Assembly (NCBI GenBank): GCA_041639695.1
Contig: JBEQBQ010000002.1
Coordinates: forward strand, 869-64,868
DNA from: Candidatus Nanohaloarchaea archaeon
GTDB lineage: Archaea; Nanohalarchaeota; Nanosalinia; Nanosalinales; Nanosalinaceae
Direction of reading: 5' to 3'
Length of the DNA stretch: 64,000 nucleotides
The position numbers were made by a program, and so were the translations under genes. Of the stretch, positions 24,818 through 48,317 are shown in pieces (positions within the stretch are counted from its first letter, which is position 1; every line of letters starts with the position of its first letter). Under the pieces are notes generated by a model that had not been told where the DNA came from, did not search any database, and saw only the letters and a program-made list of their open reading frames with translations.

Positions 24818-25948
24818 CTAGGATGTCTTTGTTCTTGTTTTAAGCGAGCCGTTCTGGAATCTTGCGTATGGCAAATCGATCCATGCATCTAAATCTCCGT
24901 TTAAACCTCCCCATGCGCCGCTTGTACCTCCATGGGTTAAGCCAACTCTTCCAATATCGTTTGTACTATGTGCGTTTAAGGATCTCCCTGAGAGCGAACT
25001 GTTGCTTGTGGATCCCCCGACATCCTTCCAAATTACATCATAAGTTAACGTGCTCCAGTCAATATAGAACTCCATCTTCCTCCAAACGCCATAATTAGGG
25101 CTAGGTGATGAAACCATTTCGGTAGATCCATCGCCGTCCTCTATAGTTACTTGAGGGTTGTCTGTGCCTGCGTAGAAAAGATTGGAGCCGTTCGAGGTTG
25201 AAGGTGAATAAGCAGTTACTCTGTTGTTTGAGGTTTCATAGTAGTAGAACTCCAAATAATCATATTTGGCTGCATCGAAGTCGATATAGGCATGTGCCTC
25301 TCCGGCGTTAGCGGTATCGTTTAAGTGAAGAGATTTACTGCCTTCGTATGCATACGTTTCGCTGACTGAAGGAGATTTATTACAAGTCCATGGTGAGGGA
25401 GGTTGAGATCCAGAAGTGTATGATTCCCAGGTCTCCGCAGATAGATCAAGTCTAACCTTGTTTGAGGGGTGATTTACGTTATTTTCGGATTGAGAGTTGT
25501 TCCAGTCAGAGGAGGAAGCCCATTTTCCTACATTACTCAAATCCGCACTATTTGCCTCAGGACTCTTGTTAATTTCCTGATTATTTAATTGCCATTCAAT
25601 CCAATAAGTGTTCCCTGAACTCCCATCCAGGTTTGATAGAGTGTATGTATTAACTCCGTCAGCGACAGATATTGTTTCAGTGTTATCGGCTGTTCCATCG
25701 CCGGTTGTATCCTCATACACTGTTAAGCTCATCGAAGTTCCCGATGAAACTGTTGCATCAGTTTCTATCTGATTGACATCAACGTTACTCCATACAGTAC
25801 TCCCATCGACAGTAATCTCTTGGACTTGTTCGCCATCAATAGTTACATCTGTAACACCTGTGCCGTCAAGATTTATAGCTAGAGAATTCCAGATAACCGG
25901 GCAGGAGAACAGGAATAAGTTCCTTAAGTTTTTCAGTTTCAGTAACAT
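24818..25948 (-). CDS. LamG/concanavalin-like jelly-roll protein, partner of family member 2
   Basis: 376 aa. N-terminal INLDGTGVTDVTIDGEQVQEITVDGSTVWS motif shared with 26591..27319. Starts 7 nt after the upstream stop. Confidence 0.5.
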   Translation of the reverse strand: MLLKLKNLRNLFLFSCPVIWNSLAINLDGTGVTDVTIDGEQVQEITVDGSTVWSNVDVNQIETDATVSSGTSMSLTVYEDTTGDGTADNTETISVADGVNTYTLSNLDGSSGNTYWIEWQLNNQEINKSPEANSADLSNVGKWASSSDWNNSQSENNVNHPSNKVRLDLSAETWESYTSGSQPPSPWTCNKSPSVSETYAYEGSKSLHLNDTANAGEAHAYIDFDAAKYDYLEFYYYETSNNRVTAYSPSTSNGSNLFYAGTDNPQVTIEDGDGSTEMVSSPSPNYGVWRKMEFYIDWSTLTYDVIWKDVGGSTSNSSLSGRSLNAHSTNDIGRVGLTHGGTSGAWGGLNGDLDAWIDLPYARFQNGSLKTRTKTS

Positions 25949-26590: not shown

Positions 26591-27319
26591 TTAGTGGATG
26601 TAGAATTTATCCCAGTAAGGATCTGCTTTATGGTCGGCTCTGAAACCGATGCCCCCGCTGTCATGCGAACTGTCCGTGTAGGAGGTCGAGGCTACTTCAG
26701 TTCCATTATCGAAAACTTTCACGGTTATGGTGTCAAATCCCCAATTACACTGTAGCCGGTACCATTTTCCAGTAATCCAGGTTATTGAGTCTGTTGACTG
26801 AACATTATTTCCGTCTAGAAGACCGATATTTCCATCTCTGAAGTCTGCGTGAAATCCGTAGCCGCTGTGTATATCGGTGACATCCTGCAGTCCAAAGCAG
26901 GTTCTAGGTTGTGAATCTGATTGACCTCCTCTAATCCAGACAGAGAAAGTATCTCCTCTGGAAGGATAATTTGAAAGTCCGCTGGAAGAAGTAATCCATT
27001 TGTTCGAGCCGCTTCCTCCGCCTTTCAAAGCATTACTTCCTTCGTAAACCGGAGAAGATACTGTGCTGAAATAAGATGTATATCCGCCGTCGTAATCATT
27101 AAGATTGCCGCTCTCGAAGTCATCAACTATTTTCGTTGAGTTCCAAACTGTGTTTCCATCTAACGTTACTTCTTTTACATTCTCTCCATCTATGGTTAAG
27201 CCCTGTATCTCAGAACCATCAATATTTATACCAAGCAGGCTGTAAGGTATATGGAATTGTTTTGGTTGGTTAAATGAAGTTTCAAGTGTTTTGAACAGCT
27301 TTTTCCTAAAATTTTTCAT
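26591..27319 (-). CDS. LamG/concanavalin-like jelly-roll protein
   Basis: 242 aa. GINIDGSEIQGLTIDGENVKEVTLDGNTVWNS, then DDFESGNLNDYDGGY...YEGSNALKGGG..., typical of a LamG-like fold. Confidence 0.5.
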   Translation of the reverse strand: MKNFRKKLFKTLETSFNQPKQFHIPYSLLGINIDGSEIQGLTIDGENVKEVTLDGNTVWNSTKIVDDFESGNLNDYDGGYTSYFSTVSSPVYEGSNALKGGGSGSNKWITSSSGLSNYPSRGDTFSVWIRGGQSDSQPRTCFGLQDVTDIHSGYGFHADFRDGNIGLLDGNNVQSTDSITWITGKWYRLQCNWGFDTITVKVFDNGTEVASTSYTDSSHDSGGIGFRADHKADPYWDKFYIH

Positions 27320-29290: not shown

Positions 29291-29338
29291 TTTTCTATTA
29301 CCTCTAGAGTCCTGTTTTTTATCCCTGTAAGAGATGTG

Positions 29339-31486: not shown

Positions 31487-32224
31487 CTATCTGAAGTTCT
31501 GTACATCGACTTTCAGGAAGTCGGCGCCCGTAGGCAGCTGGTAAAGAACATCATACTTGAAACCGTACTCGCTTGAGATCGTAGCCTTAATCCTGCCCGT
31601 TCCAATATAATCTCCTAGTTGTTCGGCTTCTGTATAACCTGTTCCGTAGCTTGTAGATGGCTCGGCATTAAGTTTTACGGTAATATTGCCGTCCAGGTTT
31701 TTGTTCGGGCCTTCAGGGTTTTTGAACTCGTAGAGGGCGACTAGCTTTGAGGTATTGATACTTTGAGGAGAGCTGCTTGAACCCACATTTTTAATACAGG
31801 CCTTAATATGGTCGTTCTCCATAAGGTAGCACGAGGTTCCGTCTATAGTAGTTTTGTTTACCTCCACATTTGCAGAGGAACTTAAGACTATGTTGCCGCT
31901 TTTCTTCGAGGTCTGTGGCGATATTACGTTTGAATCAGTACGTAACTCATATATTAAGGATTTGGTGTCGTTGTTGAAATAGAGTTCTCCCCGGCTAAAA
32001 CTTATATCCATAGTTCTTGTAGAGCCTTTCCCTTCGGAGACGACTTCTTGGACGTTGGAGTCTACAGTCTGCATGAAGTTCTGGGCCTTCCTGATCGAGT
32101 TGGCGTCCTGCATGTTTTCAAGTGCGGGGGCGCCAACTGTAAGGGCTGCAGAGACCGCGGTCACAGTCACTCCTACGTATATTGCCATCGTCGCGATCTC
32201 AGAAACTCCTTTCGACATAACCAA
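31487..32224 (-). CDS. prepilin-like protein (class III signal peptide)
   Basis: MVMSKG|VSEIATMAIYVGVTVTAVSAAL. Confidence 0.6.
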   Translation of the reverse strand: MVMSKGVSEIATMAIYVGVTVTAVSAALTVGAPALENMQDANSIRKAQNFMQTVDSNVQEVVSEGKGSTRTMDISFSRGELYFNNDTKSLIYELRTDSNVISPQTSKKSGNIVLSSSANVEVNKTTIDGTSCYLMENDHIKACIKNVGSSSSPQSINTSKLVALYEFKNPEGPNKNLDGNITVKLNAEPSTSYGTGYTEAEQLGDYIGTGRIKATISSEYGFKYDVLYQLPTGADFLKVDVQNFR

Positions 32225-32248
32225 TCCTACTTTCTGGTGGCTTAAATA

Positions 32249-32797
32249 TTAATGGAGCCGGGTATTTACCCAGGTCTCACTATCATCTTCCATCTTGGAC
32301 CAGACAAACATACGGGAGTTAGAAACGTTAAACTCTCTGTCTATTCCGAGCGATTTCACCTTAATACGGGATTCAAACTTTCCTTCAGGAAGCGAAATCT
32401 GTTTGCTCTGCATGGATTCTAGAGTTAAGTTGGACCAAGATCCGTCTACTTGTATATCTGTATTGATTAGGGAATCGCCGTAATTAATTACGAGCCCTTT
32501 ACCCGAATAAGGAAGTAAGATATAATTTAGGCCTCTATAATCTATACCTTTTCTCTGAGACTGCCTGTCTATGAATCTGTGAGAGTTGTAAACCCTTCTT
32601 TCGATATATGTTGATGAGAGATTTTTCTGAAGGGCTTCGTCAAAAGATTCAACTGGTACATCCATCGAATCCGAGAAGTACTGCCTAAAATAGGTTTCTT
32701 CTCCGCCTTCTACAAAGTCGCCGTAAGAATAGACTGTTAGGAGAATGAAGCTTGAGAATACGATAGCTGAAAGTATGAAGACTTGGCCCTTTCTCAT
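32249..32797 (-). CDS. prepilin-like protein (class III signal peptide)
   Basis: MRKG|QVFILSAIVFSSFILLTVY. Confidence 0.6.
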   Translation of the reverse strand: MRKGQVFILSAIVFSSFILLTVYSYGDFVEGGEETYFRQYFSDSMDVPVESFDEALQKNLSSTYIERRVYNSHRFIDRQSQRKGIDYRGLNYILLPYSGKGLVINYGDSLINTDIQVDGSWSNLTLESMQSKQISLPEGKFESRIKVKSLGIDREFNVSNSRMFVWSKMEDDSETWVNTRLH

Positions 32798-33369
32798 TTG
32801 TATATCGCCGCCCGTATCTCGTAGCTCGAGTTTTCATATCCGGGATAGTTTACTGTATATACGTCGTCTTTCTCAGGCAGATTACCTTTCGAAATATATG
32901 AGTTAAATGAAACAGTAAGCTTTCCGGTTCCAGTAATATTGAACCATCTTTGGCCCGAATCAACGCTCTCAAAGTGGTAACCGTCTTTACTGATGTTGTC
33001 AAGCACCTTTGAATCCCCAAAACTTGCGTTGAGGTTGTCTGCGTTCTTCACCCATAGCTGCATGCCTGAAAGATTCGAGCTACTGAAATATGTCTGATCC
33101 GGGGACTGGAGACTTCTGTAAGTTGAGTTCATTTGGATTATTCTGACTGAATGATTGTAGCTCTCAGGTATAGTTGAATCAATTTTGTTCTTGACTAAAG
33201 AGGGGTCAAGCGGTAGTTTATCTCTTTGTTCTAGAGTTTTAAGTTCCTGCAGAACGCTGTCAAACTCGATATCTGCCTGCTGTGAAGTCTGGGGTAGAAC
33301 AACAAGTACCATAGTCAGAATTAGTGTCGATGCTATGACTGCCTCTAAAGTATGTATGAAACCCTTCAC
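32794..33369 (-). CDS. prepilin-like protein (class III signal peptide)
   Basis: MKG|FIHTLEAVIASTLILTMVLVVL; the N-terminus resembles that of 12662..14440 (GHIIEAMIAII). Confidence 0.6.
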   Translation of the reverse strand: MKGFIHTLEAVIASTLILTMVLVVLPQTSQQADIEFDSVLQELKTLEQRDKLPLDPSLVKNKIDSTIPESYNHSVRIIQMNSTYRSLQSPDQTYFSSSNLSGMQLWVKNADNLNASFGDSKVLDNISKDGYHFESVDSGQRWFNITGTGKLTVSFNSYISKGNLPEKDDVYTVNYPGYENSSYEIRAAIYK

Positions 33370-34532
33370 CAGACGGTCACCCTTGTACTTAGCTCAGTTA
33401 AGCTACCGTTCCTGTAAAAACCGGTAAGAAAGCCTTCTCTCGACACAGCCTGTTGCAAAGGTATCTGGCTGCCTATGGAGGTAATTTTCTTAGTTTGGTT
33501 CGATACTGAAATGTTAAACCTGTCCGGAGAACGTTCTAAGAGGTTTTGAAGCTCTTGATCTGATTTATTGTTAAGTTCTTCTATCCTCGCTATAGGGGCT
33601 GCTGGGAAACTGTTTAGGGGTCCGAAAACGGTTTTACCTTCGCTGTAGCTCTTTATCCTCTTCCAGCCTGCTTTGTAGTCTTTATCGTGAAGTCTTATCC
33701 GGACTCTGCTTGCGTTTATCTCCGCCAACACCGTCGAGCTATCGGGCTTGGATACATCAGCCTCCATATTACCTATAAAGCTTATGCCGTAGTTTGATGC
33801 TACGGTAAAACCTTTTGTGGTTCCCTGTTTGAAGGATCCGCTTCCTACAAGTTCGGTTGTAGAGTTGTCTGCTTCCCAGTACAGAGTTGAAAGGTTTTTG
33901 AGTTGGAAGGATATATCGGAGGCGTTTTCAAGAATCAGTTCCGTTGAACCGTTGTAAATATTTAGATCGACCGGCCTCATCTCTGCAAATAACCGATATT
34001 CCTCTATATTAAAGGTTGAAGTATTTAGATCCGCGGAGGATGAGAGAAGCTGTTTGTCATTAATTTTTAGCGACTGAAGCCCATTCCCGCCTGGTTTTAC
34101 TGAAATATCGGAGTTGTTCATCCATGTTCCTGTATCAATATCCTGGTAGACGTCCCCTGTAATATTTCTCGGGAAGAGATTCAGAGTTCTAGTAGCATTC
34201 GATTTCTCTATTACTGTAACTGTTCTGTTCTTGTAGAGCTCAACATTTTCATTCCCTAGGCTCGCGTTAACATAGAATTTGTCAAAAAAATGTTTTCGAT
34301 CCACAGGAACGCTTGAGATTGTAAACGGCGACCTTGTTACCAGTTTTTTCTGGCCGAGAGAATCAGTAAACTGGCTCTCCAAACGTTCGCCGACCTGGGT
34401 TGCCAGATTTTCTAGATTGCTTGAGTTTTCTCCTGTCTGGTAGCCGGCTAGGAAGATAATGCTGGAGAGTAATGTGATTATCATTAGACCCAGTCCTATA
34501 GACCAGTCGATGTTGACGGACTGACCTTTCAA
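33366..34532 (-). CDS. prepilin-like protein (class III signal peptide)
   Basis: MKG|QSVNIDWSIGLGLMIITLLSSIIFLAG; 388 aa. Confidence 0.6.
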   Translation of the reverse strand: MKGQSVNIDWSIGLGLMIITLLSSIIFLAGYQTGENSSNLENLATQVGERLESQFTDSLGQKKLVTRSPFTISSVPVDRKHFFDKFYVNASLGNENVELYKNRTVTVIEKSNATRTLNLFPRNITGDVYQDIDTGTWMNNSDISVKPGGNGLQSLKINDKQLLSSSADLNTSTFNIEEYRLFAEMRPVDLNIYNGSTELILENASDISFQLKNLSTLYWEADNSTTELVGSGSFKQGTTKGFTVASNYGISFIGNMEADVSKPDSSTVLAEINASRVRIRLHDKDYKAGWKRIKSYSEGKTVFGPLNSFPAAPIARIEELNNKSDQELQNLLERSPDRFNISVSNQTKKITSIGSQIPLQQAVSREGFLTGFYRNGSLTELSTRVTVW

Positions 34533-35440
34533 CTGATATCAACCTCGTTGGAACCAGTTTTCCTCACCGAGATTGAGTAGCCGCCTGACGAAAGATCAAG
34601 CTCAGAGTTCAGACTGATCTCTGGTTCATAACTAACTCTGACTAGGGGTTCTTGATGGATGATGAAGCCGAAGCTAGGTTTCAGTTTGTCTAGAAAGCTT
34701 CTGCCTGTTATAGTTTGTTTTCTACCCTCTATAGCTCCTTTGTTTCCTTGGGTTAAAGGCAGAATAAAGTTAGCTCTATTTGATTCTTTGGTGATACTCA
34801 ATAAATTTTTATCTTCCAAATTTCTCTCAGCTTTGAGAAAACTTGATGTTACTAAACCTGATACGTAATCATCTGAATCTGAAACTAAATAAGGAAATTC
34901 GGCAGGAGGGCTAAAATCTCTCTCAGTCTGAACCCTCTGGCCATCAAAGTAAATCTTATCTGAACTACTTAGGTTAAACTCCATCTCTACTGTAACGTTT
35001 TCAGGAGACTGATAGGTTCCACAGACCTTAGTATCGAAAACAGAAGGCTTTGAGACGTGAGCGTCATCTTTGGAGGAAGCGGAGAAAAGGACTGTTGAGT
35101 TTGAGGGACAAGAGCCTGTCGACGTGGTTACGGCCATTCTTCCGGTACATACGTGAAGGTTGTAGGAGTCAAAGATTGAGAAATGAGCGTTTTCCTCCCT
35201 AGATGACAGATAAAAACCTGAATTCGATTTACAGCTTGTTGAGATACTAGAACTTTCGATCCCTGAGACGCATACGTTATTTGAATAGTAGTTAGGCTCT
35301 GCCGGATGGCTATATGTTTCGTTGCTGTCGAAAGATATTAATGGTTCATAGCTCCCGCATTCATCTGCATATTTGACCTCCAGCGCGGCTGAAGCCGGAA
35401 TAATTAGAGCGATAACTAGCAGAATTTTCAGCAGCTTCAT
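34529..35440 (-). CDS. Sec-signal secreted protein with three Cys/His repeats (module copy A)
   Basis: 303 aa. MKLLKILLVIALIIPASAA signal. Paralog of 35947..36861 (shared SPENVT, PPxEFPY, PSFG, PLVRVxY). 4-nt overlap with the prepilin-like operon. Confidence 0.6.
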   Translation of the reverse strand: MKLLKILLVIALIIPASAALEVKYADECGSYEPLISFDSNETYSHPAEPNYYSNNVCVSGIESSSISTSCKSNSGFYLSSREENAHFSIFDSYNLHVCTGRMAVTTSTGSCPSNSTVLFSASSKDDAHVSKPSVFDTKVCGTYQSPENVTVEMEFNLSSSDKIYFDGQRVQTERDFSPPAEFPYLVSDSDDYVSGLVTSSFLKAERNLEDKNLLSITKESNRANFILPLTQGNKGAIEGRKQTITGRSFLDKLKPSFGFIIHQEPLVRVSYEPEISLNSELDLSSGGYSISVRKTGSNEVDIS

Positions 35441-35499
35441 GGTTTCAAAATTGTCTGCTTTCGGTTATTAAACCTGCACGCACTTGGGTCATCGAACGA

Positions 35500-35507
35500 T
35501 TTAAATT
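35500..35507 (+). promoter_or_regulatory. TATA-box-like element for 35531..35863
   Basis: TTTAAATT centred about 28 nt upstream of the ATG. The same element sits at the same distance in duplicate copy B. Confidence 0.35.
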
Positions 35508-35530
35508 CTGGAAAGCTGCTTAAACATTAT

Positions 35531-35863
35531 ATGGAGTCCAAAATTCTGATGACGCTACTGGGTATTTCTTTAGTAGCGGTAGCGGCTGCACCTGCCTCAG
35601 AGCCTAACCATCCGTTCTCTCAGATTTACCCGGTAGATGTTGACCTCAACATGTCAGAAAAGGATATCTTCAACGTTACAGAAGTCGATTTAGCTGGAGG
35701 CCTAATTTTCTCAGGTGACTGGATAAAGACTCCTGGTGGTGCTAGCCTTTTAGGCTGGAACTCTTCTTCAACAGAACTTGAATTGAATAATGGAAATCTG
35801 GACACAAATGGGAATAGTATAGTTTCCTCGGGTTCTGAGCTATGTCTAGGCGATGAATGCTAG
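35531..35863 (+). CDS. small Sec-signal secreted protein ending in a CxxxxC motif (module copy A)
   Basis: 110 aa. Signal peptide, HPFSQIYPVDVDLN, NGNLDTNGNSIVSS, C-terminal ELCLGDEC. Paralog of 36928..37266. Confidence 0.6.
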   Translation: MESKILMTLLGISLVAVAAAPASEPNHPFSQIYPVDVDLNMSEKDIFNVTEVDLAGGLIFSGDWIKTPGGASLLGWNSSSTELELNNGNLDTNGNSIVSSGSELCLGDEC

Positions 35864-35946
35864 AACCAAGAGACTATAACAATTTCAGATTAAGGAGATA
35901 CGTAAGTGGTTTGCAAATGTTTTAATGGAATTAGGAGGGATTAGAG

Positions 35947-36861
35947 TTAATCTAACGTGATTCTCACTGAATCTTCTATTATTCCGGAGTTACTGATTGT
36001 CAGGTCTCCACGTTCCCTGATATTTGAGTTATCGTTTCCAATTGTCAGATTAGGTCTATAAATTACTCTTACAAGCGGCATGCTCTGTAATGGTTCTCCG
36101 AAGCTCGGTTCAATCTGCTCGATTAAGACTCTTTCGTTGATTTCTTTCTGTCTTTTCTCAATCTCTGTCTGACCTCCATCAGAGAATGGTACTAAGAATG
36201 AAGATTGGCCTGCTGAAGTCATCGATACAGTATCAGAGGTAGGTCTAGAAAGTTTTAGGAAATCTCCGTAATTAACAATACCTAGAGGTTGCTCTGAAAC
36301 AATATACGGGAACTCGACAGGGGGATAGAGCTCTTCTCCGGTAGTTATCTCTTGTTGGCTTGCATATGTTGTCCCGGACACTCCATTCAACTCTAAGGTA
36401 ACGTTTTCCGGGCTTTTTGTCGTTAAACAGAGGCTCTTGTTGTATGGATCTGCGTTATAGCTTGGAGCAGCTGCGTGTGTGTTGGTCTTATCTGTTACGG
36501 ACAGAGTTTTCGTTCCGTTTACACAGCTATCTTTCACTGAGGCTCGTAAACTTCCTGAACATAGGCTGTAGCTGTACTGGTTCTCGAAAATACTGAGATG
36601 GGAGTTTGTCTTGTTAGCCATGGAGAAAAGGGTTTCGTCCCCTGAACTGCAGCTTAAACCAATTCCAAGGTTTTCAGCGTCATCCACACATACCTGATTG
36701 GGGTAATAACCGGGTTCTGCAACGTGACCTCCATCCGTTTTGTTGAGAGAGACTAAAGGCTCAGTTCCATCAGGACAGCTGGTTCCAACCGAAACATCTA
36801 CTGCTGTCACGCCTTGTGTGATTAAGATAAGGGCTCCAATTAGGAATATCTTTTTTCTCAC
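35947..36861 (-). CDS. Sec-signal secreted protein with three Cys/His repeats (module copy B)
   Basis: 304 aa, GTG start. MRKKIFLIGALILITQGVTA signal. Paralog of 34529..35440. Confidence 0.6.
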   Translation of the reverse strand: MRKKIFLIGALILITQGVTAVDVSVGTSCPDGTEPLVSLNKTDGGHVAEPGYYPNQVCVDDAENLGIGLSCSSGDETLFSMANKTNSHLSIFENQYSYSLCSGSLRASVKDSCVNGTKTLSVTDKTNTHAAAPSYNADPYNKSLCLTTKSPENVTLELNGVSGTTYASQQEITTGEELYPPVEFPYIVSEQPLGIVNYGDFLKLSRPTSDTVSMTSAGQSSFLVPFSDGGQTEIEKRQKEINERVLIEQIEPSFGEPLQSMPLVRVIYRPNLTIGNDNSNIRERGDLTISNSGIIEDSVRITLD

Positions 36862-36897
36862 GTCTAAAACTTGTTTAAACCCGAATATAAGATCAAC

Positions 36898-36904
36898 TTT
36901 AAAT
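36898..36904 (+). promoter_or_regulatory. TATA-box-like element for 36928..37266
   Basis: TTTAAAT centred about 27 nt upstream of the ATG; mirrors 35500..35507. Confidence 0.35.
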
Positions 36905-36927
36905 CCTGCGTTCTCTAAATTGCTGAT

Positions 36928-37266
36928 ATGAATAGCTGGAGAGCCGGAGGTATCGCCTTATTAGCCATATTTCTAGCTGCTCTAGCTACCGCTCCCACCG
37001 TACAACACCATCCGTTCTCACAGATTTTTCCGTCAGACCAGGATCTCAACTTTGGAGAATACGATGCGTTTAATATGACAGAAGTTAACCTGGCGAACGG
37101 AGCTATTTTCACAGGCAACGTGGTCAGAAACGCTGGAAGATCGATTGATATTATTAGATACCTAAATACTGGAAATGTAGAGATACCTAACGGCAATCTA
37201 GATCTGAAAGGCAACAACATTACTTCTTCATCTGGAGGTGAGATATGTGTCGGAGAATATTGTTGA
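36928..37266 (+). CDS. small Sec-signal secreted protein ending in a CxxxxC motif (module copy B)
   Basis: 112 aa. HPFSQIFPSDQDLN, NGNLDLKGNNITSS, C-terminal EICVGEYC. Confidence 0.6.
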   Translation: MNSWRAGGIALLAIFLAALATAPTVQHHPFSQIFPSDQDLNFGEYDAFNMTEVNLANGAIFTGNVVRNAGRSIDIIRYLNTGNVEIPNGNLDLKGNNITSSSGGEICVGEYC

Positions 37267-38155
37267 AATTGATAAAGAAGAATTAGAGGGACTGATTGAG
37301 AGTAAAGTTGAAGAAAGAGTAGAGGAGAGAGTACAGAAAGAGCTTGAGAAAGGAAAAAGTACTAAGAAAGAGTCCGAAAGCGGTATGTCGAGAAGAGGTT
37401 TTTTAAAGAAGCTTGGAGCTGGAGCAGTAGGTTTAGGCGCTCTTTCGCTGTCAGCCTCGGCATTAAACGTTAGAAGTGACGACCTGACATTCTACGGAGC
37501 TGATTCATCTCAGGAGTTAGAGGTGCTTGATGGAGGTCCTGTGAACATCAAAAACGCCAATTTGCAGTTAAATGGAAATAGTATTGAAGGGGTAGAATAT
37601 CTGAAGTTAAATAACATAGAGTTTGGAAGCTTGCCGACTGAGGAGTTCGTAATAGGTATAGATAACAGCGAGTCCCCGAAATATTATCATAATGGTTCTT
37701 GGAGGAAATTCTGGACCTCAAAAAACGATGGAGACGGAAGCGGGCTAAACGCTGACATGGTGGATGGCGAGGAACCGCCTTTTGGTCAGATGCCGTCGGG
37801 AGCTATTGTCATGTGGTCTGGCTCTATCTCGAACATTCCCTCAGGATGGGTTCTCTGTGACGGCAATAATGGCACGCCTGACCTCCGAGATCGTTTCGTG
37901 GTGGGTGCAGGCAACTCCTATAATGTTGGAAATACGGGAGGGGAAGCCTCACATAATCTTACGGAAAGCGAGATGCCTTCACATAATCATGGCATAAAGG
38001 AGGTAAGTAATGTTAACGATTCAAATATAGGGGAAGGATTTACGCACAACGACGGCGATACAAGCTATATCAATTTCTCGCAGGATGCTGGAGGCGATAG
38101 CGCTCACGAAAACCGACCGCCTTACCATGCGCTAGCCTATATTCAGAAGGTGTAA
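37247..38155 (+). CDS. coiled-coil-leader / twin-arginine-signal secreted protein with phage tail-collar-like C-terminal domain (family member 3)
   Basis: GTG 37247 gives MSENIVEIDKEELEGLIESKVEERVEERV, which aligns with member 4 (the ORF is open from 37238). RR at 49-50 (MSRRGFLKKLGAGAVGLGALSLSASA|L). GDGSGLNADMVDG. GAIVMWSGSISNIPSGWVLCDGNNGTPDLRDRFVVGAG...MPSHNH. Confidence 0.75.
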   Translation: MSENIVEIDKEELEGLIESKVEERVEERVQKELEKGKSTKKESESGMSRRGFLKKLGAGAVGLGALSLSASALNVRSDDLTFYGADSSQELEVLDGGPVNIKNANLQLNGNSIEGVEYLKLNNIEFGSLPTEEFVIGIDNSESPKYYHNGSWRKFWTSKNDGDGSGLNADMVDGEEPPFGQMPSGAIVMWSGSISNIPSGWVLCDGNNGTPDLRDRFVVGAGNSYNVGNTGGEASHNLTESEMPSHNHGIKEVSNVNDSNIGEGFTHNDGDTSYINFSQDAGGDSAHENRPPYHALAYIQKV

Positions 38156-38158
38156 ATT

Positions 38159-38578
38159 ATGACTCATAAATGCTCAAGATGTGGTGAAGAACTAGGCCGG
38201 GGGAAGGAAGTCAAAGATAAAGCTCGTTACATCGAATCTCACGACATGGAAACTGAGACTGAAAGAGAGCAGATTATTGCTTTAAGGCATACTGACAAGA
38301 CAAGGCAAATCCGGGACATATTGGTAGATGAGCAGGGTTTGAATGTTGTTCAGGCAAACAGAGTGATGGCAAGGAAAGACAAGTCCTATCTAGATAAGAT
38401 CGACAAGTCATTCACTGAATCGGATTTTAAGCAAGAAGAAGTCTCTAACCCGGTTTCTCCAGAGGAGGATCCAGAGGTCGTCCAAGTTGATACAAAACTG
38501 ATTACAGAAAAGGAGGCTGAGAAAGCTCTTGTATGTAAGCAAGAATGTGTTAAGGAGCAGGATGAAATCATATGGTAA
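38159..38578 (+). CDS. hypothetical protein with N-terminal CxxC
   Basis: 139-aa acidic ORF starting 4 nt after the previous stop; MTHKCSRCGEEL. Confidence 0.45.
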   Translation: MTHKCSRCGEELGRGKEVKDKARYIESHDMETETEREQIIALRHTDKTRQIRDILVDEQGLNVVQANRVMARKDKSYLDKIDKSFTESDFKQEEVSNPVSPEEDPEVVQVDTKLITEKEAEKALVCKQECVKEQDEIIW

Positions 38579-38692
38579 GTCGTGTTTTCTAAGGATATTG
38601 GGATATTTGCTGCATATGGAAGGTCTTGAAAGGATATCTCCAGTAAAAACGACAATTTTAAACCCCAGAAAACTAAATTTTTTCTATAATTA

Positions 38693-39549
38693 ATGTCGGG
38701 CAAAATTGAGGTAGATCCTGAAGAACTTGAAAAGTTGGTTGAACGTAAGGTTGAGGAAAGACTAAAAGAACGGCTTGAGCAGGAAACTGTCGAAAACAGT
38801 AAAAATTCTGAAGACGGGATTTCGAGGCGAGGATTTCTGAAGAAACTTGGTGCTGGCGCCATGGGTTTAGGCGCGGTAAGTTTTTCATCCGTTAGTGCCT
38901 TAACTTTGTCAAAGAACTCTATCAGAAATAATGGTCAGTCCATCTCTTCTGGAGGTCTATTTGATTTGAATAGCTACCTCTCGCGGTCCGGCGGTAATCT
39001 ATCTGGTCCACTAACACTTGGAGGGGACTTGAAAGCAAATGATGGCGAGTTGATTTGGGATGAGTCTAATTCCTTTGTACCGGCTTCCGTCTTAGAACAG
39101 TCTGGGATCGACCATGACAATCTGTCCAGTATTTCTGCTGATGATCATCATCCGGAGGTTTCTGCCGGAACGAATATTTCCGTTGATTCAAGTAACACGG
39201 TTGGTGTTTCTCCTCAGGGCCATACAAGCGTTTAAATGCGGATATGGTTGATGGAAATCATGCAGATGAGTTAAAGGGTATTACTGTATCTGATATTAAA
39301 CACGAGTCCGGAAGTACAGGTGTATCCGTTGGAGGAGGTTCCTACACTATCAACCTTTCGAATAATTATAGGACTCTTACCGGGTTGAGTACTGATATTC
39401 AGAACTCTAATTGGGATACAAACAACAATAATGCAGATGCTGCATGGATTAGTGATATTGATCTTTCAAACAACCAAGTAACTATCAGCTATACGAATGA
39501 TGAGAACAATACCGGTACTTTGTATTGGGATGTTTGGGGAATCGTATAA
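38693..39549 (+). pseudogene. coiled-coil-leader / twin-arginine-signal fibre-like gene split by a 1-nt frameshift (family member 4)
   Basis: ORFs 38693..39235 and 39244..39549 are in different frames. The second frame reads ...RLNADMVDG upstream of its ATG. Restoring one G at about 39229-39231 gives ...PQGHTSGLNADMVDGNHADEL, matching GSGLNADMVDG of member 3. Confidence 0.65.
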
Positions 39550-39637
39550 TGCCTTTTGAATTCTTGAGCCTATTAATAATCTGATTTCAGACTCATCCGG
39601 CATAAAGTATTTACATTAGAATATTGTATCTTCTACC

Positions 39638-39865
39638 ATGGGATTAATTGGTTTACAGGAAGCAGTTCTGATAGGTGCTGCAGCGATCGCTCTAATCATG
39701 GGTCCAAAGAAACTTCCACAGCTAGCACGTTCTCTAGGTGAATCAAAGAAAGAGTACAAGGAATCTATGAAGGAGGCTGAGGAGGCGGTTGATGAAGCGG
39801 CTCCTGATGTTGACGAGGAGATGGAGGAAGTAGAGAAAGAAGTAAAGGATGTAAAGGAAGAATAG
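39638..39865 (+). CDS. tatA: Sec-independent (Tat) translocase protein TatA/E
   Basis: 75 aa. MGLIGLQEAVLIGAAAIALIMGPKKLPQLARSLGES followed by an acidic tail. Confidence 0.85.
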   Translation: MGLIGLQEAVLIGAAAIALIMGPKKLPQLARSLGESKKEYKESMKEAEEAVDEAAPDVDEEMEEVEKEVKDVKEE

Positions 39866-39873
39866 GATAAGTT

Positions 39874-40560
39874 ATGCAGACCCTACAGGATCACGTCAGG
39901 GAACTCCGGAAACGATTAAAGGTTGCAGGAGCTTTCTTTCTTCTAGCTGTCGGAGTATGTTTCTATTTTTCCTCCCAAGTTCTTAACTGGCTTCAATCAG
40001 ATCTAGGCTTCGCACTACACGCTTTAACAGCTTATGAAGTACTTTACACGGAGTTAATGATTGCTTTCCTTGGAGGATTTCTATTCAGTCTTCCAATAGT
40101 TCTATATGAAATAATTGCGTTTATGCGTCCGGGTTTAAAGGAGAAAGAGTATCTAGTGATGAGAAATTATTTGCCGTTCTCGGTAATACTTTTCGTAGGT
40201 GGGGCTGTGTTTGCATACAGTTACATAGTCAAAGCCAGTCTCGCGTTCTTCAACTCGACAACCGAATCTGCGAACGTCGCCGCGGTCTGGGGCCTCCAGA
40301 ACACGGTAGGTTTCGCCTTAAGGATCTCAGCTTTCACCGGCATAATATTCCAACTTCCCATCGTCTCGGTACTCCTAGCTAGGGCAGGGCTCCTGAACGT
40401 TGATATGATGAAAAGATACAGGTCGTACTTCATAGTGTCGATTCTCGTAATCTCAGCTTTGGCAACACCGCCAGACCTTATATCTCAGGCACTGGTAACT
40501 GGACCCGTTATCGGTCTTTATCAGATCAGTATTTTACTGGTGTCTCGGTTCGAGGACTAA
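39874..40560 (+). CDS. tatC: Tat translocase protein TatC
   Basis: 228 aa. HVRELRKRL N-terminus and six predicted TM helices; immediately downstream of tatA. Confidence 0.85.
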   Translation: MQTLQDHVRELRKRLKVAGAFFLLAVGVCFYFSSQVLNWLQSDLGFALHALTAYEVLYTELMIAFLGGFLFSLPIVLYEIIAFMRPGLKEKEYLVMRNYLPFSVILFVGGAVFAYSYIVKASLAFFNSTTESANVAAVWGLQNTVGFALRISAFTGIIFQLPIVSVLLARAGLLNVDMMKRYRSYFIVSILVISALATPPDLISQALVTGPVIGLYQISILLVSRFED

Positions 40561-40662
40561 AACTTGTTAAATAGAGCGAGCAAGAATAAATGTATGAACG
40601 GGTTGAAGTAGTTTATCCTTCGAAGGTTCCCGGCTTTCTGGCGTGGTTCCGGCTCAGAAAGC

Positions 40663-41313
40663 TTGGCGAAGGAATCATATTCGGGGACAAATATTTCCCG
40701 TAGATCGTTCCTCAGAAAGCTAGGTGCGGGCGCCATAAGTGTAGGTGCTCTAGGTTTAACTCCTGCTTATTCGGGCCTCAAATTAAGTTCTGGCGGGATT
40801 ACAAAGGACGGTACAAGTTCTTTCTGGCATGAGGGAACATTCAGCAAATCAAACTATCTCCCTGTTGATGGTTCACAGGATATGGCGGGAGATCTATCTA
40901 TCTATCGCCGGAGATCTAAAAACTGATGGCAGTACCACTATATGGGATAGCTCTAATGCTCAAATCCCTGCTTCGATTATAGAGCAGGGGGATGGAAGCC
41001 AGCTTGATGCTGATACCGTCGATGGTTCGGAGCCGGGCGAAATAGGGTTGCAGGTTTATTCGGATAGTTTTACAGTTCCTGCAGGACAGCCCTATCGTGA
41101 GAACACGGGTCTAACTCCTTCCGAGTGGTTTCTGTAGAAGTGATACCTATTACAGGGGATGTAGCGGTTGAACAGGTTAAATCGACTAGCAGCCCTGCAG
41201 AAGTGGGTTATTACATCGTCTATGACTCTGCAAATGGGATGGAAATAGATCTTTCTATCCAGAATAATACTTCGCAAGACGTGGATCTTTATGTGAAAGT
41301 TATTCATAACTAA
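40663..41313 (+). pseudogene. twin-arginine-signal fibre-like gene with two frameshifts and no coiled-coil leader (family member 5)
   Basis: Three ORF pieces in frames 1/2/1: 40663..40926, 40829..41137, 41125..41313. TTG start; ISRRSFLRKLGAGAISVGALGLTPAYS|GLKL. The middle piece carries GDLKTDGSTTIWDSSNAQIPASIIEQGDGSQLDADTVDG. Confidence 0.65.
40892..40906 (+). repeat. (ATCT)3ATC tetranucleotide tract at the first frameshift of member 5
   Basis: gATCTATCTATCTATCg read directly. Removing one 4-nt unit joins ...DMAGDLSI to AGDLKTDGS... in frame. Confidence 0.8.
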
Positions 41314-41425
41314 AAGGATTGGGATGTTTTCCTAGCAATATGTTTAAGGGTGCTTCTAGGTAGTCGAGGGGCGGGTAGGACGCCAAACCACAAGATAGTT
41401 AAACAACCTATTGAATTAGGGTGTT

Positions 41426-42152
41426 ATGACGGGCGATGTTAAAGAGGTCAAAAAAGAGAAAAAATCCTCTGAAATTGGCCGACGTTCTTTCCTTAGGAAA
41501 TTAGGAGCTGGTGCTATAGGTATTGGGATCTTTTCACTCCCTTCAGTGTCTGCTCTGGATATTAAAAGTAGTACGGGCCTTGAGGTCTTCAGCGGTAACA
41601 AGAAATACCTGGATGTAGAGTCCGGAGGGCCTGTAAGCGTCAATAATACAGGACTCAACGTTAGTGGAGGTCTGGATGTGGGGGTCAGGAAAGTTTTACA
41701 CTGATCTGGGTATATTGTCTGATGTTTTTCTGGCTGCGGATAGCGCATGGTTTACAGCGAACGCGAAGGATGTCTCTGGAAGCGGAGGAGTAAAAATGCA
41801 GGATGGTGGAACGACTAAAATGGCTGTGGAATGGTCTAACGGTTATCAGTACGGAAGAATAACGGATGAAGGTGCCGGAGAGGACTGGATGGTTTTCAAT
41901 CCTGGTGGTCCTGTAGATGTAAAACGTAGTCTGAACGTGAACGGCAACAAGGTCTGGCACGCCGGAAACGACGGTTCCGGAAGCGGTTTGGTGGCCAACA
42001 AAGTTACAGGGACGAACGGTGGCAATAGGTTAGGAGGCCAGATGCCTGTTTATCAGACTAAGACCGATGCCCAAAACGACTCAGATGTCGTCGAGGGAAC
42101 TATAGTGTACGTAAAAGAGGATAACACTTTCTACTACGAGGACGGTACGTGA
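41426..42152 (+). pseudogene. twin-arginine-signal fibre-like gene split at a G5 tract (family member 6)
   Basis: ORFs 41426..41704 and 41664..42152. EIGRRSFLRKLGAGAIGIGIFSLPSVSA|L. Removing one G from GGGGG (41680-41684) gives ...GGLDVGSGKFYTDLGILSD... in one frame. Confidence 0.65.
41680..41684 (+). repeat. G5 homopolymer at the frameshift of member 6
   Basis: gatgtGGGGGtcagg read directly. Confidence 0.8.
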
Positions 42153-42991
42153 TGGCTTTAGTACCGATAGGAGGTGGTTCGGACAAGGCCCTGGGTTTCG
42201 ATAATCCTTACGGTGATGGAAGCGACGGTTCACTCACATGGGGCTCCAACTCCACGAAAGGAGGCATTTTCCAGACAACAGATCTTACCATAACGTCAGG
42301 CACCACGATTACAATCAGTTCCTCTAATACGGTATTAGTGGTTATGGCGCAGAACAGTATTACTGTTGAAGCAAATGTTACTATAAATGGTTCAGGCGCG
42401 GGAGGTGCCGGGGGTAGCGGCGGAAACGGAGACTCAAACAGAGATTATAGAATGGGTAATCCTGGTGAGGACGGTATGATAACAGGGCCCGGAGCGGCGG
42501 GAGGTGGTGCTTACGATACTGCATCTGGTGGTTTATCAGTTCCATCAAGTTTGAAAGCACCAACAATATACGGCACAGCTATGGAGATAGCGACCCAGAG
42601 TTCCCTTGATGTCTCTGCCGGGGGTACAGGTGGGAGCGGTAGCTACTACTACGCAAATGGCGGGAACGGCGGTTCAGGTGGAGGAGGTCTTATACTGATC
42701 GCTCCGGACATATCAGTAGACTCCTCTATGTCTATTGACCTTTCAGGGACGGATGGTCAGAAAGGTGATAATGGATCTGACTATGATGGTGATAACGGTG
42801 CTGGCGGTGGAGGCGGCGGTGCTGGAGGGGTTTTCCTTGCCTTAGGGCAGAACGTAAACGCAGATCTCTCGAATGTAGATATTTCGGGGGGTGCTGGAGG
42901 TGCCGGAGGGACGGGCGGAGGCTACAACTCTCCAGGAGATCCTGGTGAGGACGGTGTTAATGGGATCAAGGCAGTTCGGAGTCTGAATTAG
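42149..42991 (+). CDS. glycine-rich beta-helix-like protein, translationally coupled to member 6
   Basis: 280 aa. Start overlaps the upstream stop (GTGATGG). ...LTITSGTTITISSSNTVLVV...ITVEANVTINGSGAGGAGGSGGNG..., repeated GGxGG blocks. Confidence 0.6.
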   Translation: MMALVPIGGGSDKALGFDNPYGDGSDGSLTWGSNSTKGGIFQTTDLTITSGTTITISSSNTVLVVMAQNSITVEANVTINGSGAGGAGGSGGNGDSNRDYRMGNPGEDGMITGPGAAGGGAYDTASGGLSVPSSLKAPTIYGTAMEIATQSSLDVSAGGTGGSGSYYYANGGNGGSGGGGLILIAPDISVDSSMSIDLSGTDGQKGDNGSDYDGDNGAGGGGGGAGGVFLALGQNVNADLSNVDISGGAGGAGGTGGGYNSPGDPGEDGVNGIKAVRSLN

Positions 42992-43051
42992 ATTCTCGAA
43001 AGTTTCGAACCTCTTTTAAAAAGTTAGGGTTTCCATTTCTGAATATGCAAC

Positions 43052-44380
43052 GTGATAAACACTATGAAAGTATACACTATAGGCGGTTACGAGGAAGTCG
43101 GCCGCAACATGACAGCAGTGGAAGTTGACGGAGAAGCCGTCATCTTCGACATGGGATTCGAAATGGAAGAAGTAATTAACGCAGACGGGGAAGTGGATCA
43201 AATGACCACCAACCAGACTTTAGAGACCGGCGCAATCCCGATCGACGAAGTTCTCTACGAAAACGACGTAGAAGTAAAAGCAATCATCATCGGACACGGA
43301 CACCTTGACCATGTCGGAGCGATTCCAAAGCTCGCAGGAGCTTACGACGCACCGATCGTCTGTACGCCTTACACCAAGAAAATTGTTGAAAACAATATCG
43401 ATGGCGACAGGAAGAACATCGACAACGATGTAATCGGAGTCGAGAAAGGAGACGAGTACGAGATTTCAGATGATCTTGAACTCGAATTCATGCACGTCAA
43501 CCACTCCATCCCTCAGGCAACACTATCACTTCTCAAAACACCTGAAGGCGGAGTAGTCTACGGAAACGACATGAAAATCGACTACAGCCCGGTAATCGAA
43601 GAAACAACAGACATCGAAAGACTCAAATCTGCGGGAGAAGAAGGCATCAAACTGATGATTCCCGGAACCACAAACGTATGTGACGAAGGAAGATGCCGTT
43701 CCGAAAGATCGGTTGAGCAGGAACTCGAAGACGTAATGAACTCGTGCTACGCCAACGGCGGCGCAGTAGTAATGAGTACTTTCTCAAGCCAGATCTCCAG
43801 ACTCAACTCGATTATCGACGCCAACAACGGCAGGAGAAAGATCGCATTTGTTGGAAGAAGCCTCAAGGAGTACACACAGGCAGCAGAAGAGCTAGGGTTG
43901 ATCGATCTTTCAGATGTAAAGGTTGTTTCCTACTTCGATGAGGTACAGGACTTGATGAACCGTGTCTCCGGAAACAAGGAAGACTGGTTGATCGTTGCTA
44001 CAGGAAACCAGGGAGAGCCAGGAGCACAGATGGACAAGCTGGCGACAGGACAGTACCCGTTCGACTTCGAGAAAGGAGACCACGTAATCTTCTCCTCGAG
44101 AACAATCCCGACACCTCCAACAGAGGCAAACAGGTACAACCTAGAGAAGAAACTGAAAGAACAGGGAGTAAGAGTTTACCCTGGAGTCCACACCTCAGGA
44201 CACGCCAAGAAAGAAGATCACAGAGACTTCATCAACTACCTCCAGCCTGAAAACATCGTTCCTTCGCATGGAACAATCCAGAAGCTTGGAGACTACGTTG
44301 AACTAGCAAGACAGGAAGGCTACACTCTAGAAGAGGACGTCTTTATCGGAGAGAACGGAAGAGTCATCGAAATAGAGTAA
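43052..44380 (+). CDS. rnj: ribonuclease J (beta-CASP metallo-beta-lactamase)
   Basis: 442 aa. IIGHGHLDHVGAIP (HxHxDH); size and layout of archaeal RNase J. Confidence 0.85.
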   Translation: MINTMKVYTIGGYEEVGRNMTAVEVDGEAVIFDMGFEMEEVINADGEVDQMTTNQTLETGAIPIDEVLYENDVEVKAIIIGHGHLDHVGAIPKLAGAYDAPIVCTPYTKKIVENNIDGDRKNIDNDVIGVEKGDEYEISDDLELEFMHVNHSIPQATLSLLKTPEGGVVYGNDMKIDYSPVIEETTDIERLKSAGEEGIKLMIPGTTNVCDEGRCRSERSVEQELEDVMNSCYANGGAVVMSTFSSQISRLNSIIDANNGRRKIAFVGRSLKEYTQAAEELGLIDLSDVKVVSYFDEVQDLMNRVSGNKEDWLIVATGNQGEPGAQMDKLATGQYPFDFEKGDHVIFSSRTIPTPPTEANRYNLEKKLKEQGVRVYPGVHTSGHAKKEDHRDFINYLQPENIVPSHGTIQKLGDYVELARQEGYTLEEDVFIGENGRVIEIE

Positions 44381-44400
44381 ACCTTCTTCCTCTCCACTTT

Positions 44401-44877
44401 TTATTTCTCTATTCTAAGTCTATCTCCCTTACTGATTGAATGATTTTCTGCGAAGTCCTGGTTTAATTCCACTACGTACTGGGCCGGCTCCTCGCTCCTG
44501 TAAGATGCAAGCTCGTCCTCCGGGGTGTTAGGTTCCGGATCGGCTTGTTCAATATTGAGTACAGTGTAGTTCGAGTCGAGGAAGATAATATCGAGCGGTA
44601 TGTATGTGTTTTTCATCCAGAACCATCTATTTCCCTCAGATTCGTACTTGAAAAGCATTCCATGATTCTTTTCCAGTTTGGTTCGGTTCATCAGGCCTTC
44701 TCGGCGCTCGGATGAGGTATCAGCGACCTCCAAGTTTACCTCGGCTAAAGTTTCGTTTCCAGAGATAAAGTTAGCCTTAACATTTTGGTCGTCTAGCAGA
44801 TGATTTGTTGCTCCCATGCCAACCAAGGCTGCTACAGAGCCAACTAGAAGTAATCTATAGATTTTTGACATTTCCAT
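44401..44877 (-). CDS. DUF192 domain protein with N-terminal signal/anchor
   Basis: 158 aa. REGLMNRTKLEKNHGMLFKYE...WMKNTYIPLDIIFLD, the DUF192 signature. Confidence 0.7.
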   Translation of the reverse strand: MEMSKIYRLLLVGSVAALVGMGATNHLLDDQNVKANFISGNETLAEVNLEVADTSSERREGLMNRTKLEKNHGMLFKYESEGNRWFWMKNTYIPLDIIFLDSNYTVLNIEQADPEPNTPEDELASYRSEEPAQYVVELNQDFAENHSISKGDRLRIEK

Positions 44878-45043
44878 GAAGATTACCTAGCTTAGAAGAT
44901 AACTTTGGAAGGATTTGTGGTGTGAAGAATAGTGTCAAAGCAACAGATAATAGAATGGCTTCCCCAATACCAAGACTGAAAGGGAGAGGTATGAAAAACA
45001 TACTATAATATTGGTTAAGTTAAGTCTTAAGCATTAACCAGAT

Positions 45044-45050
45044 TTTTATT
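45044..45050 (+). promoter_or_regulatory. TATA-box-like element upstream of family member 7
   Basis: TTTTATT centred about 26 nt upstream of the in-frame ATA at 45073. Confidence 0.3.
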
Positions 45051-45063
45051 CAGTTCTGTATAA

Positions 45064-45552
45064 TACTTTAGTATAGTTAGTTTAAAGGAAGAGGTTCAAG
45101 AACTCAAGGAACGTGTCTCTGAGCTTGAAGAAGAGAATAAAAGGCTTAGGAAAGACTCTATTGAAGAAAAAAATGTTTCTAGGAGGTCATTCCTGAAAAA
45201 ACTTGGTGCAGGGGTGATAGGTTTAGGCGCTCTTTCCGTTCCTACTTCCGCATTAAACATCAAAAGCAGTAAAGGGCTCGAAGTTTTTGCCAACAACTCA
45301 AACTACTTCAGTGTTGAAACAGGGGGCCCTGTGAAAGTGAAAAATACTGATTTAGAAATCGGTAAGGATCTGCTGGCTAAAGACGGTGAGCTGATATGGG
45401 ATGAATCAAACTCGCAGATACCTGCTAATAGGATAGAGCAAGGTGAGGGGAGCCAGTTAAATGCGGATACTGTTGACGGTGTTGAGGCAAATTCTCTCGG
45501 GGCTTCTGCATTAAATATTGAAGGCTTTGCTCCCAACTTTGGTGGAAAATAA
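45064..45552 (+). pseudogene. coiled-coil-leader / twin-arginine-signal fibre-like gene lacking any ATG/GTG/TTG before the signal (family member 7)
   Basis: Frame open from 45064: ..I-VSLKEEVQELKERVSELEEENKRLRKDSIEEKNVSRRSFLKKLGAGVIGLGALSVPTSA|LNIK... The first canonical start is GTG 45214, inside the signal h-region. Later DGELIWDESNSQIPANRIEQGEGSQLNADTVDG. Confidence 0.6.
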
Positions 45553-45965
45553 TGACTATTAGTTCTAAAATGTACAGGCATACGGACTCAGGATCCTATA
45601 ATACAGATGGAGAAATAATAGTGTCTTCCTCCAGTTTCACAGTCTCTTCAGGAAATATGATATACCTGGATAAGTGTGGTGTATAGGCCACATTAAAGAC
45701 TACGGATTCCGGTAATGAGGCTTATGCTGAGTGTAGAATGTTAAAGAGAGATGTAAATACAGGTGTTCTGGTTCAGAAAAGTGGGGTTGTGGCCTCAACT
45801 GCTTCAACGTCCTATAGTACTGTTAAAGCACAGGGAAGCTTTGGAGGTTATCTGACTGACTCTATGGAGCTGGTACTACAATATATTCTTTATATATACG
45901 GTAATAATCCTTCTGCCTATTCTAATGATTTTAATGCTGCTCTTTCAGGCAGGCAAGTGGTTTGA
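45552..45965 (+). pseudogene. partner ORF of member 7, interrupted by an in-frame TAG
   Basis: ATG 45552 overlaps the upstream stop (TAATG). A 44-codon ORF ends at TAG 45684-45686. ORF 45738..45965 is in the same frame with no other stop between. Confidence 0.5.
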
Positions 45966-48161: not shown

Positions 48162-48317
48162 TGGGAAAGCCGGGATTCGAACCCGGGACCTCTGCGTATC
48201 TCACATCTTCTGGAAACCTAGTTAATCATCGGAACCTGGCTATCCAGAATCACCAAGTTCCTCATCGCTCATAAAGTTGTTATGAGCGCAGCGCTCTAAC
48301 CTCTGAGCCACTTTCCC
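48162..48317 (-). tRNA. tRNA-Met (CAU; elongator-type, or Ile2 type if C34 is modified) with an 83-nt intron at 37/38
   Basis: Reverse complement folds as GGGAAAG/TG/GCTC-AGAGGTTA-GAGC/G/CTGCG-CTCATA[intron 48198-48280]A-CGCAG/AGGTC/CCGGG-TTCGAAT-CCCGG/CTTTCCC/A. Intron TTATGAGCG pairs with the anticodon arm. Confidence 0.85.

Follow-up and report, generated by a model that had tools for sequence, protein, structure and literature searches.

Clustered lesions in Tat-exported, fibre-like genes of a nanohaloarchaeon as probable recent pseudogenes

A family of genes encoding putative surface proteins with twin-arginine translocation (Tat) signals was examined in a 64,000-nucleotide stretch (the window) of a nanohaloarchaeal (DPANN) metagenome-assembled genome (MAG; Candidatus Nanohaloarchaea archaeon, GCA_041639695.1, contig JBEQBQ010000002.1, positions 869 to 64,868 of the forward strand). 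Seven family genes lie in the window, the number already counted in a first-pass annotation made from the sequence; three are intact and four, designated A, C, D and F, are broken, as is G, a small partner open reading frame (ORF) downstream of F (Table 1). The dominant genotype does carry these lesions. We consider it probable, at roughly 0.6, that they represent recent and tolerated pseudogenisation of accessory, redundant surface genes, in the course of birth-and-death turnover in a symbiont of small population size. From the sequence we infer relaxed selection and fixation of the broken alleles, and the proteins themselves presumably serve as attachment fibres that contact the haloarchaeal host or other surfaces.

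Six lesions in five genes

The first-pass annotation had placed disruptions in four of the seven family members and in one partner gene, and three-frame translation with repair, combined with codon-usage scoring of the fragments, bore this out: six lesions were found in A, C (two), D, F and G, each where that annotation had put it. The repaired frames contain no additional stops, and the best frame of every fragment by codon usage is the one predicted by the repairs. The codon score in the predicted frame is near zero to positive for 11 of 12 fragments; the exception, the C-terminal fragment of G, scores -0.108 in what is still its best frame. Because the repaired frames carry no further stops and codon usage is still gene-like, the inactivation appears to be recent. 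Each of the four copies lying in 38.7-45.6 kb, as well as the one partner, would have been inactivated by a small mutation that arose independently, namely a 1-nt deletion (A), a tandem duplication of 4 nt with a further 1-nt shift (C), a 1-nt gain or 2-nt loss (D), a start-codon substitution (F) and a nonsense substitution (G).

In A, the window reads AGC-GT TTA where the homologous DNA of locus L041 reads AGC AGT TT, just before the motif LNADMVDG. More than 10 homologues (P0036, P0043, P0055 and P0107 among them) align across A residues 178-186, where the lesion lies. Homologues that run uninterrupted across the lesion, as expected for a recent pseudogene, were thus found for A, and the same holds for D (see below). 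Locus L041 (JBDGTY010000023.1, from a Ca. Nanohalobium sp. MAG) encodes a product 76% identical to A residues 104-179, and its gene is interrupted by a 100-N scaffold gap (6527-6627) that starts at the codon before L(N/D)ADxVDG, the module junction that is broken in A. This gap suggests that head modules are strain-variable and break assemblies at that junction.

The first lesion of C lies in a perfect (ATCT)3.75 repeat, the sole tetranucleotide repeat in the window, where 0.015 would be expected by chance; removal of 4 nt from it restores ...DLSIAGDLKTDG... in the translation. Homologues of C cover only its N-terminal and middle modules, with the N-terminal module matching P0019. No homologue was found for the C-terminal part, the frame of which is backed by codon usage. 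A degenerate second stretch coding for LRKLG (CTCAGAAAGCT[T/A]GG; 40653-40679 / 40711-40737) was also seen in another frame, 58 nt upstream of the Tat motif of C. Its similarity is equalled by 1 of 500 shuffles, and it may be the scar of a small duplication.

The lesion of D had been described as a shift in a G5 tract. The change of frame at 41680-41688 was confirmed, and its attribution to the tract was not. The intact 240-residue homologue P0013 (52% identity) can be aligned through the site without interruption. If 2 nt were lost from an AAC-like codon, the proteins align with no gap, as opposed to the one-residue gap left by a G5-to-G4 repair. DNA comparison further revealed no G run at the corresponding position of P0013. 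Since the 2-nt loss fits without gaps and the homologue lacks the run, the lesion is not assignable to the G tract. A 14-nt duplication at this position was also considered and rejected, the units being only 84% alike (TRF) and the homologue alignment needing no insertion.

The frame of F is preceded by a stop at 45061-45063, and its first usable start, the GTG at 45214, falls after the twin-arginine motif. Paralogues have ATG or GTG, and begin M-S/V-...-EEL, where F has ATA (45073) or GTT (45076); gene 1468-1836 of L007 likewise has a start codon at this position. Of all family and partner fragments scored for codon usage, the stretch 45073-45213 ranks highest. For G, no homologues were found, and when its profile was compared with those of the small partners encoded in L007 and L042, no significant match emerged (E = 0.4). 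To treat G as a single broken gene is reasonable but unproven, the arguments being its continuous frame, its codon usage and its position coupled to the stop of F.

The losses would be tolerated if the copies are accessory and redundant, with three paralogues intact in the window and the closest relative, MAG_AT22, lacking both C/D/E and F/G. In that genome, tatC is followed directly by the RNase J gene, and the DUF192 gene directly by that for GluRS; C/D/E (E being the glycine-rich partner of D) and F/G are therefore dispensable in the MAG_AT22 lineage. The relationship was gauged from RNase J, whose window copy is 96% identical to its MAG_AT22 counterpart and 68-83% identical to those of other Nanohaloarchaeota. 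All seven family genes from other loci, including the one of cultured N. constans, are intact, as opposed to four of seven broken here (Fisher P = 0.035), which argues that the decay is lineage-specific. Within the window, the breakage takes in every one of the four copies in 38.7-45.6 kb and spares the three that lie elsewhere (P = 0.029). Relaxed selection is plausible given this redundancy, the absence of the genes from the nearest relative, and the reported reduction or loss of the Tat system in certain cultured nanohaloarchaea (PMC10266531).

Competing accounts of the lesions

The absence of comparable disruption elsewhere in the window, and with it the non-random placement of the lesions, had been claimed from the sequence, and both claims were upheld. 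About 67 other genes look intact, judged by full-length Pfam domains or full-length matches to relatives. In a Pfam scan of 60 window ORFs, those that matched did so at full length (e.g., Lhr helicase, RFC, thermosome, GatD/E, GluRS, XPB, PCNA, pyrophosphatase and an ABC transporter), and between 17 and 61 kb most ORFs match relatives end to end. The ORF that leaves the window at its left edge is open. All six lesions fall within 14% of the coding DNA (P = 7e-6), and the five broken genes are all among the 11 family and partner genes of 78 (P = 2e-5). Within the 7.3 kb that hold the lesions, all six avoid tatA, tatC, E, RNase J and DUF192 (P = 0.010).

These figures bear on whether sequencing, polishing or assembly error was concentrated in a region that is hard to assemble. 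The genome comes from a single sample, the region contains paralogous and glycine-rich repeats, and the second assembly available, the Logan contigs of SRR27869037 (built from the same run), breaks up between 42102 and 44206. Logan contig SRR27869037_68553 (L001) nevertheless equals window positions 24681-42102 with zero mismatches and spans the lesions of A, C (both) and D, and contig _1956035 (L037) of the same run is identical to 44206-45665 and spans the startless 5' end of F. Two assemblers thus agree exactly through five of the six lesions, and those of A, C, D and F are present in the DNA and not the product of one assembler; the TAG of G lies outside the Logan contigs. Random sequencing or assembly error is unlikely because of this 100% identity, and uniform sequencing error, which the first-pass annotation had argued against, is at odds with both the identity and the clustering statistics. 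Local misassembly is disfavoured because the conserved genes standing among the broken ones are perfect (the P = 0.010 above). Homopolymer error is likewise disfavoured because thirty G/C runs of at least 5, together with several G6, A7 and T7 runs, are undisturbed in the intact genes. Furthermore, two of the lesions are base substitutions and not indels, and the paralogues are only 70-76% identical in DNA, so mis-joins are unlikely. Error as the source of the lesions is, in sum, highly improbable.

A population mosaic is the second alternative: intact and broken alleles would coexist, individual cells would express different subsets of the genes, and the assembly would record a majority "off" state. 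Four Logan contig ends are relevant here. Those at 24681 and 44206 lie in k-mers common to other Nanohaloarchaeota, and these shared k-mers explain the graph breaks in a mixed community. At 42102 and 45665, no k-mer was found that recurs within the window or at other loci; these ends could reflect strain heterogeneity or a dip in coverage. The end at 45665 stands 19 nt before the TAG of G, and that at 42102 is near the D/E junction, so that this sole hint of local heterogeneity concerns the D/E junction and G and not the other lesions. The scaffold gap described above, in an unrelated MAG and exactly at the junction broken in A, would also fit a mosaic. Against it, the lesions of A, C and D sit inside one unbroken 17.4-kb contig and the start loss of F inside another, both identical to the window. 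The protein collection searched, at 5.8 billion clusters, includes the Logan assembly of this run; no intact allele at 90% identity or above was recovered from it, and for A, C, D and G nothing both intact and nearly identical turned up. All window proteins looked up are singletons at 90% identity, occurring in the one NCBI contig and the Logan assembly, and no strain at 90% identity or above was found. Exact look-up of RNase J (with two alternative starts), E and the C-terminal fragment of G returned no record. The earlier suggestion of a consensus assembled over a hypervariable population accordingly fails for A, C, D and F and may hold only near G and the D/E junction; as an account of the whole cluster, a mosaic is unlikely.

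Bacterial contingency loci undergo phase variation through tetranucleotide or homopolymer tracts, for example in Haemophilus, Neisseria and Campylobacter. The same process was among the explanations first offered for this locus, with simple-sequence tracts slipping during replication and thereby switching fibre genes on and off. One clear product of slippage is present, since the first C lesion is a one-unit gain in the only perfect tetranucleotide repeat in 64 kb. The D lesion adjoins a G5 run, and the targets of phase variation are usually surface proteins, as encoded here. The proposal is otherwise weakly supported. At 3.75 units and five G, the tracts are shorter than those that slip frequently, the G run is absent from the D homologue, and a 2-nt loss fits the lesion of D equally well. 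The thirty G/C runs of at least 5 and the longer G6, A7 and T7 runs elsewhere are undisturbed. Moreover, the lesions of A, F and G and the second lesion of C are not slippage events, which leaves four of the six irreversible by slippage, and C stays broken after repair of its repeat, as the shift at about 41125 must also be repaired; a change in the tract alone does not restore it. Phase variation is very unlikely as the general explanation. A broader form, in which the tatAC-linked cluster is contingency-like and cells carry differing on/off combinations of fibre genes through short-repeat slippage plus other local mutation under selection by hosts or viruses, is quite unlikely as well.

Programmed recoding, in which frameshifting or stop read-through would still yield full-length proteins, was considered in view of GTTTAAAT at the break of A and the G run at that of D. 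No canonical slippery heptamer is present in the incoming frame at either site, and neither site is conserved in homologues. TAG serves as a normal stop in this genome, ending 20 of 70 window genes, and five genes would require five different mechanisms. The chance that recoding rescues these genes is close to negligible. Because of this use of TAG, an alternative genetic code and TAG read-through were likewise rejected.

Two further candidate processes were rejected. Silent-cassette gene conversion is unsupported in view of the low similarity of the paralogues, which share 70-76% DNA identity over at most 79 nt. Hypermutation by a diversity-generating retroelement (DGR) is disfavoured by the lack of a reverse transcriptase (no RVT domain in the 60 window ORFs scanned with Pfam) and of a template/variable repeat pair (none in 21-47 kb).

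Among the three explanations that the first-pass annotation had listed, relaxed selection and decay of redundant paralogues is thus the best supported. The lesions point to decay rather than to a switch because they are of mixed kinds and mostly not reversible by slippage, and because C is broken twice. Several observations weigh against recent pseudogenisation. Every protein looked up is known from one sample only, so that fixation of the alleles and the regime of selection are presumptive. The near-simultaneous breakage of four of four neighbouring copies exceeds simple drift and could reflect selection for loss or a mosaic. The Logan ends at 42102 and 45665, with no k-mer to explain them, hint at heterogeneity, and one lesion sits in a tetranucleotide repeat. 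Lastly, the position of D is conserved in other genera, so D is not merely a recent redundant duplicate.

Family architecture, partners and gene order

The seven members share a common design. A charged coiled-coil of 10-50 residues precedes a twin-arginine signal (S/T-RR-x-FL-K/R-KLGAGA), which is followed by a beta-rich stalk, usually the motif G-S-x-L-(N/D)-A-D-x-V-D-G, and a copy-specific C-terminal part. The Tat signal model TIGR01409 (cut-off 16.7) scores six of the seven members at 18.9-21.8 and D at 15.9. Tat export is accordingly indicated by the twin-arginine motif, the hydrophobic stretch and TIGR01409 scores above the cut-off, and intact tatA and tatC lie within the cluster. The long, highly charged coiled-coil ahead of the twin-arginine motif (up to about 50 residues; e.g., 37238-37440) is present in all seven genes and is atypical for Tat signals; it may serve as a cytoplasmic anchor.

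No Pfam family covers these proteins. An exhaustive search gathered about 175 family representatives; one of these, P0014 of Ca. Nanohalobium constans, is named a twin-arginine signal domain protein by NCBI. A metagenome scan with the family alignment retrieved two distant loci only, a scan of viral contigs retrieved zero relatives, and literature searches gave no prior description of the family or of its pseudogenes in Nanohaloarchaeota.

Likeness to phage proteins was found in one member, M1. Its head matches PHROG 8469 (E 3.9e-29) and PHROG 1800 (E 1e-21), and a tblastn search matched M1 to tail-fibre genes of 255 phage records, with a virus of Methanosarcinales as the top match; the Pfam Collar score is 20.7, under the cut-off of 24. 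The other six members gave no tail-fibre or collar match in Pfam or PHROGs, and among these six only D and 25955-26377 gave weak matches to PHROGs of unknown function. Judged by sequence similarity, the label "fibre-like" would be valid for the M1 head alone. The L(N/D)ADxVDG motif common to the family bears what we take to be a resemblance to fibre proteins. An AlphaFold model of repaired D had a mean predicted local distance difference test score (pLDDT) of 41.9, too poor for a fold search.

Complete short family genes encoding 120-225 residues occur in L043 (1284-2653), L042 (6897-8295) and L007 (1468-2216), followed by diverse partners that are either LamG-like or small, at about 120 residues. 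This arrangement suggests a design of stalk plus separate head.

Table 1. Family genes, partners and associated genes in the window (positions in nt; aa, amino acids)
Feature	Position	Strand	Description
Family member, 345 aa	21939..22976	-	Intact; coiled-coil N-terminus, Tat signal and variable body in translation; TIGR01409 21.3
Partner, "INLDG..VTIDG" type	24818..25948	-	Intact; directly downstream of 25955-26377; resembles partner at L040 5723-6619
Short family member, 140 aa	25955..26377	-	Intact; ends ...GLDADSVDGYEIQKNGTDGSGVINFKT; C-terminus matches that of P0013
Second partner-type gene	26591..27319	-	Intact; "INIDGS..LTIDG" N-terminus; no upstream family gene of its own
Small signal-peptide protein	35531..35863	+	Ends CLGDEC; gene kind accompanies fibre genes in other loci
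Second small signal-peptide protein, 112 aa	36928..37266	+	Ends CVGEYC; immediately upstream of M1
M1, family member, 305 aa	37238..38155	+	Intact; C-terminal half a phage tail-fibre/tail-collar head; passes TIGR01409
A	38693..39549	+	Pseudogene; 1-nt loss at ~39229 in non-repetitive sequence; ORFs of 180 aa and 101 aa
tatA	39638..39865	+	Intact; NCBIfam TatA models
tatC	39874..40560	+	Intact; TIGR00945 over 1-215 of 215 positions, 166.7 bits; Pfam TatC
C	40663..41313	+	Pseudogene, two shifts; +4 nt gain in (ATCT)3.75 at 40892-40906, -1 near 41125
D	41426..42152	+	Pseudogene; frame change at 41680-41688, G5 +1 gain or 2-nt loss
E, glycine-rich partner	42152..42991	+	Intact; start overlaps D stop (TGATG); PHROG 13336
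F	45073..45552	+	Start codon lost; frame open and coding-like from 45064; no ATG/GTG/TTG before GTG 45214
G, small partner ORF	45552..45965	+	Start overlaps F stop (TAATG); in-frame TAG at 45684-45686

A translationally coupled partner gene commonly trails a family gene, its start overlapping the fibre stop by one base; such overlaps were seen at D/E and F/G and likewise in the N. constans pair. Homologues of E occur in L005 and L007, and a glycine-rich partner also trails P0014 in L042. The order tatA-tatC-fibre-glycine-rich partner is kept in N. constans, L005 and L007, where all copies are intact; D occupies the position of intact P0014 of N. constans, next to tatC. The partner-type gene at 26591-27319 may be an orphan that remained after loss of its fibre gene.

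Small genes encoding signal-peptide proteins stand immediately 5' of fibre genes in three genomes. The N-terminal motif HPFSQI is common to the products of 35531-35863, 36928-37266, L040 1583-2119, L040 4642-4989 and L002 4047-4631, and all except L040 1583-2119 end in C-x-G-x-x-C. The product of 36928-37266 is about 80 residues shorter than its counterpart in L002 of MAG_AT22 (112 vs 194 residues).

Elsewhere in the window, an archaeal type IV pilus-like locus at 12360-21824(-) contains two T2SSF genes and a T2SSE/PilB ATPase gene, together with genes for pilin-like proteins (DUF7266, Pilin_N) and for large proteins without a Pfam match. L040, which bears another fibre module, likewise adjoins a type IV pilus-like locus. 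A tRNA was detected with Rfam at 48162-48317(-); its span of 156 nt implies a long intron, and it is absent from the ARAGORN output.

Likeness to known systems and significance

Several known systems resemble this locus in part. Pseudogene-rich adhesin families of host-dependent microbes share with it paralogues that lie in clusters and combine variable heads with a conserved part for export and stalk, the independent and recent inactivation of several copies beside intact housekeeping genes, and copy number that varies between close relatives. Differences are that the present genes belong to an archaeal DPANN symbiont and are Tat-exported, and that no near-identical tracts between copies, nor any sign of silent-cassette conversion, were seen. 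The twin-arginine signal domain proteins of Nanohaloarchaeota, such as P0014 of N. constans, have the same N-terminal module and the same order of tatA, tatC, fibre gene and glycine-rich partner, but the N. constans genes are intact, in contrast to four of seven broken here.

With bacterial contingency loci, the cluster shares surface proteins as targets and a one-unit change in one tetranucleotide repeat within an ORF. It departs from them in tracts far shorter than those of high-frequency slippers and not conserved in homologues, and in having most of its lesions outside repeats. The receptor-binding proteins of phage tail fibres and collars are likewise built from modules, in which heads can be exchanged after a conserved junction motif, and the M1 head (residues 158-305) is homologous to them; in contrast, the window genes are cellular, carry Tat signals, stand beside tatAC and housekeeping genes with no other virus genes, and, M1 aside, lack any phage tail match in their heads. 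The targets of DGRs in DPANN archaea (PMC5758913) are also fast-evolving, fibre-like surface proteins, unlike the present ones in that no reverse transcriptase or repeat pair accompanies the latter.

How nano-sized DPANN archaea recognize and attach to their hosts is largely unknown, and this locus offers a candidate apparatus that would be Tat-exported, modular and tail-fibre-like. Its family is without a Pfam entry despite some 175 representatives and a conserved tatA-tatC-fibre-partner order. A contingency-like behavior of the cluster, if true, would constitute the first archaeal adhesin repertoire switchable at the population level, and the importance of the locus would rise only if switchable or mosaic alleles appeared in the reads. 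By itself, this accumulation of fresh pseudogenes is an ordinary evolutionary pattern; it suggests rapid turnover of the putative attachment apparatus in one lineage at least.

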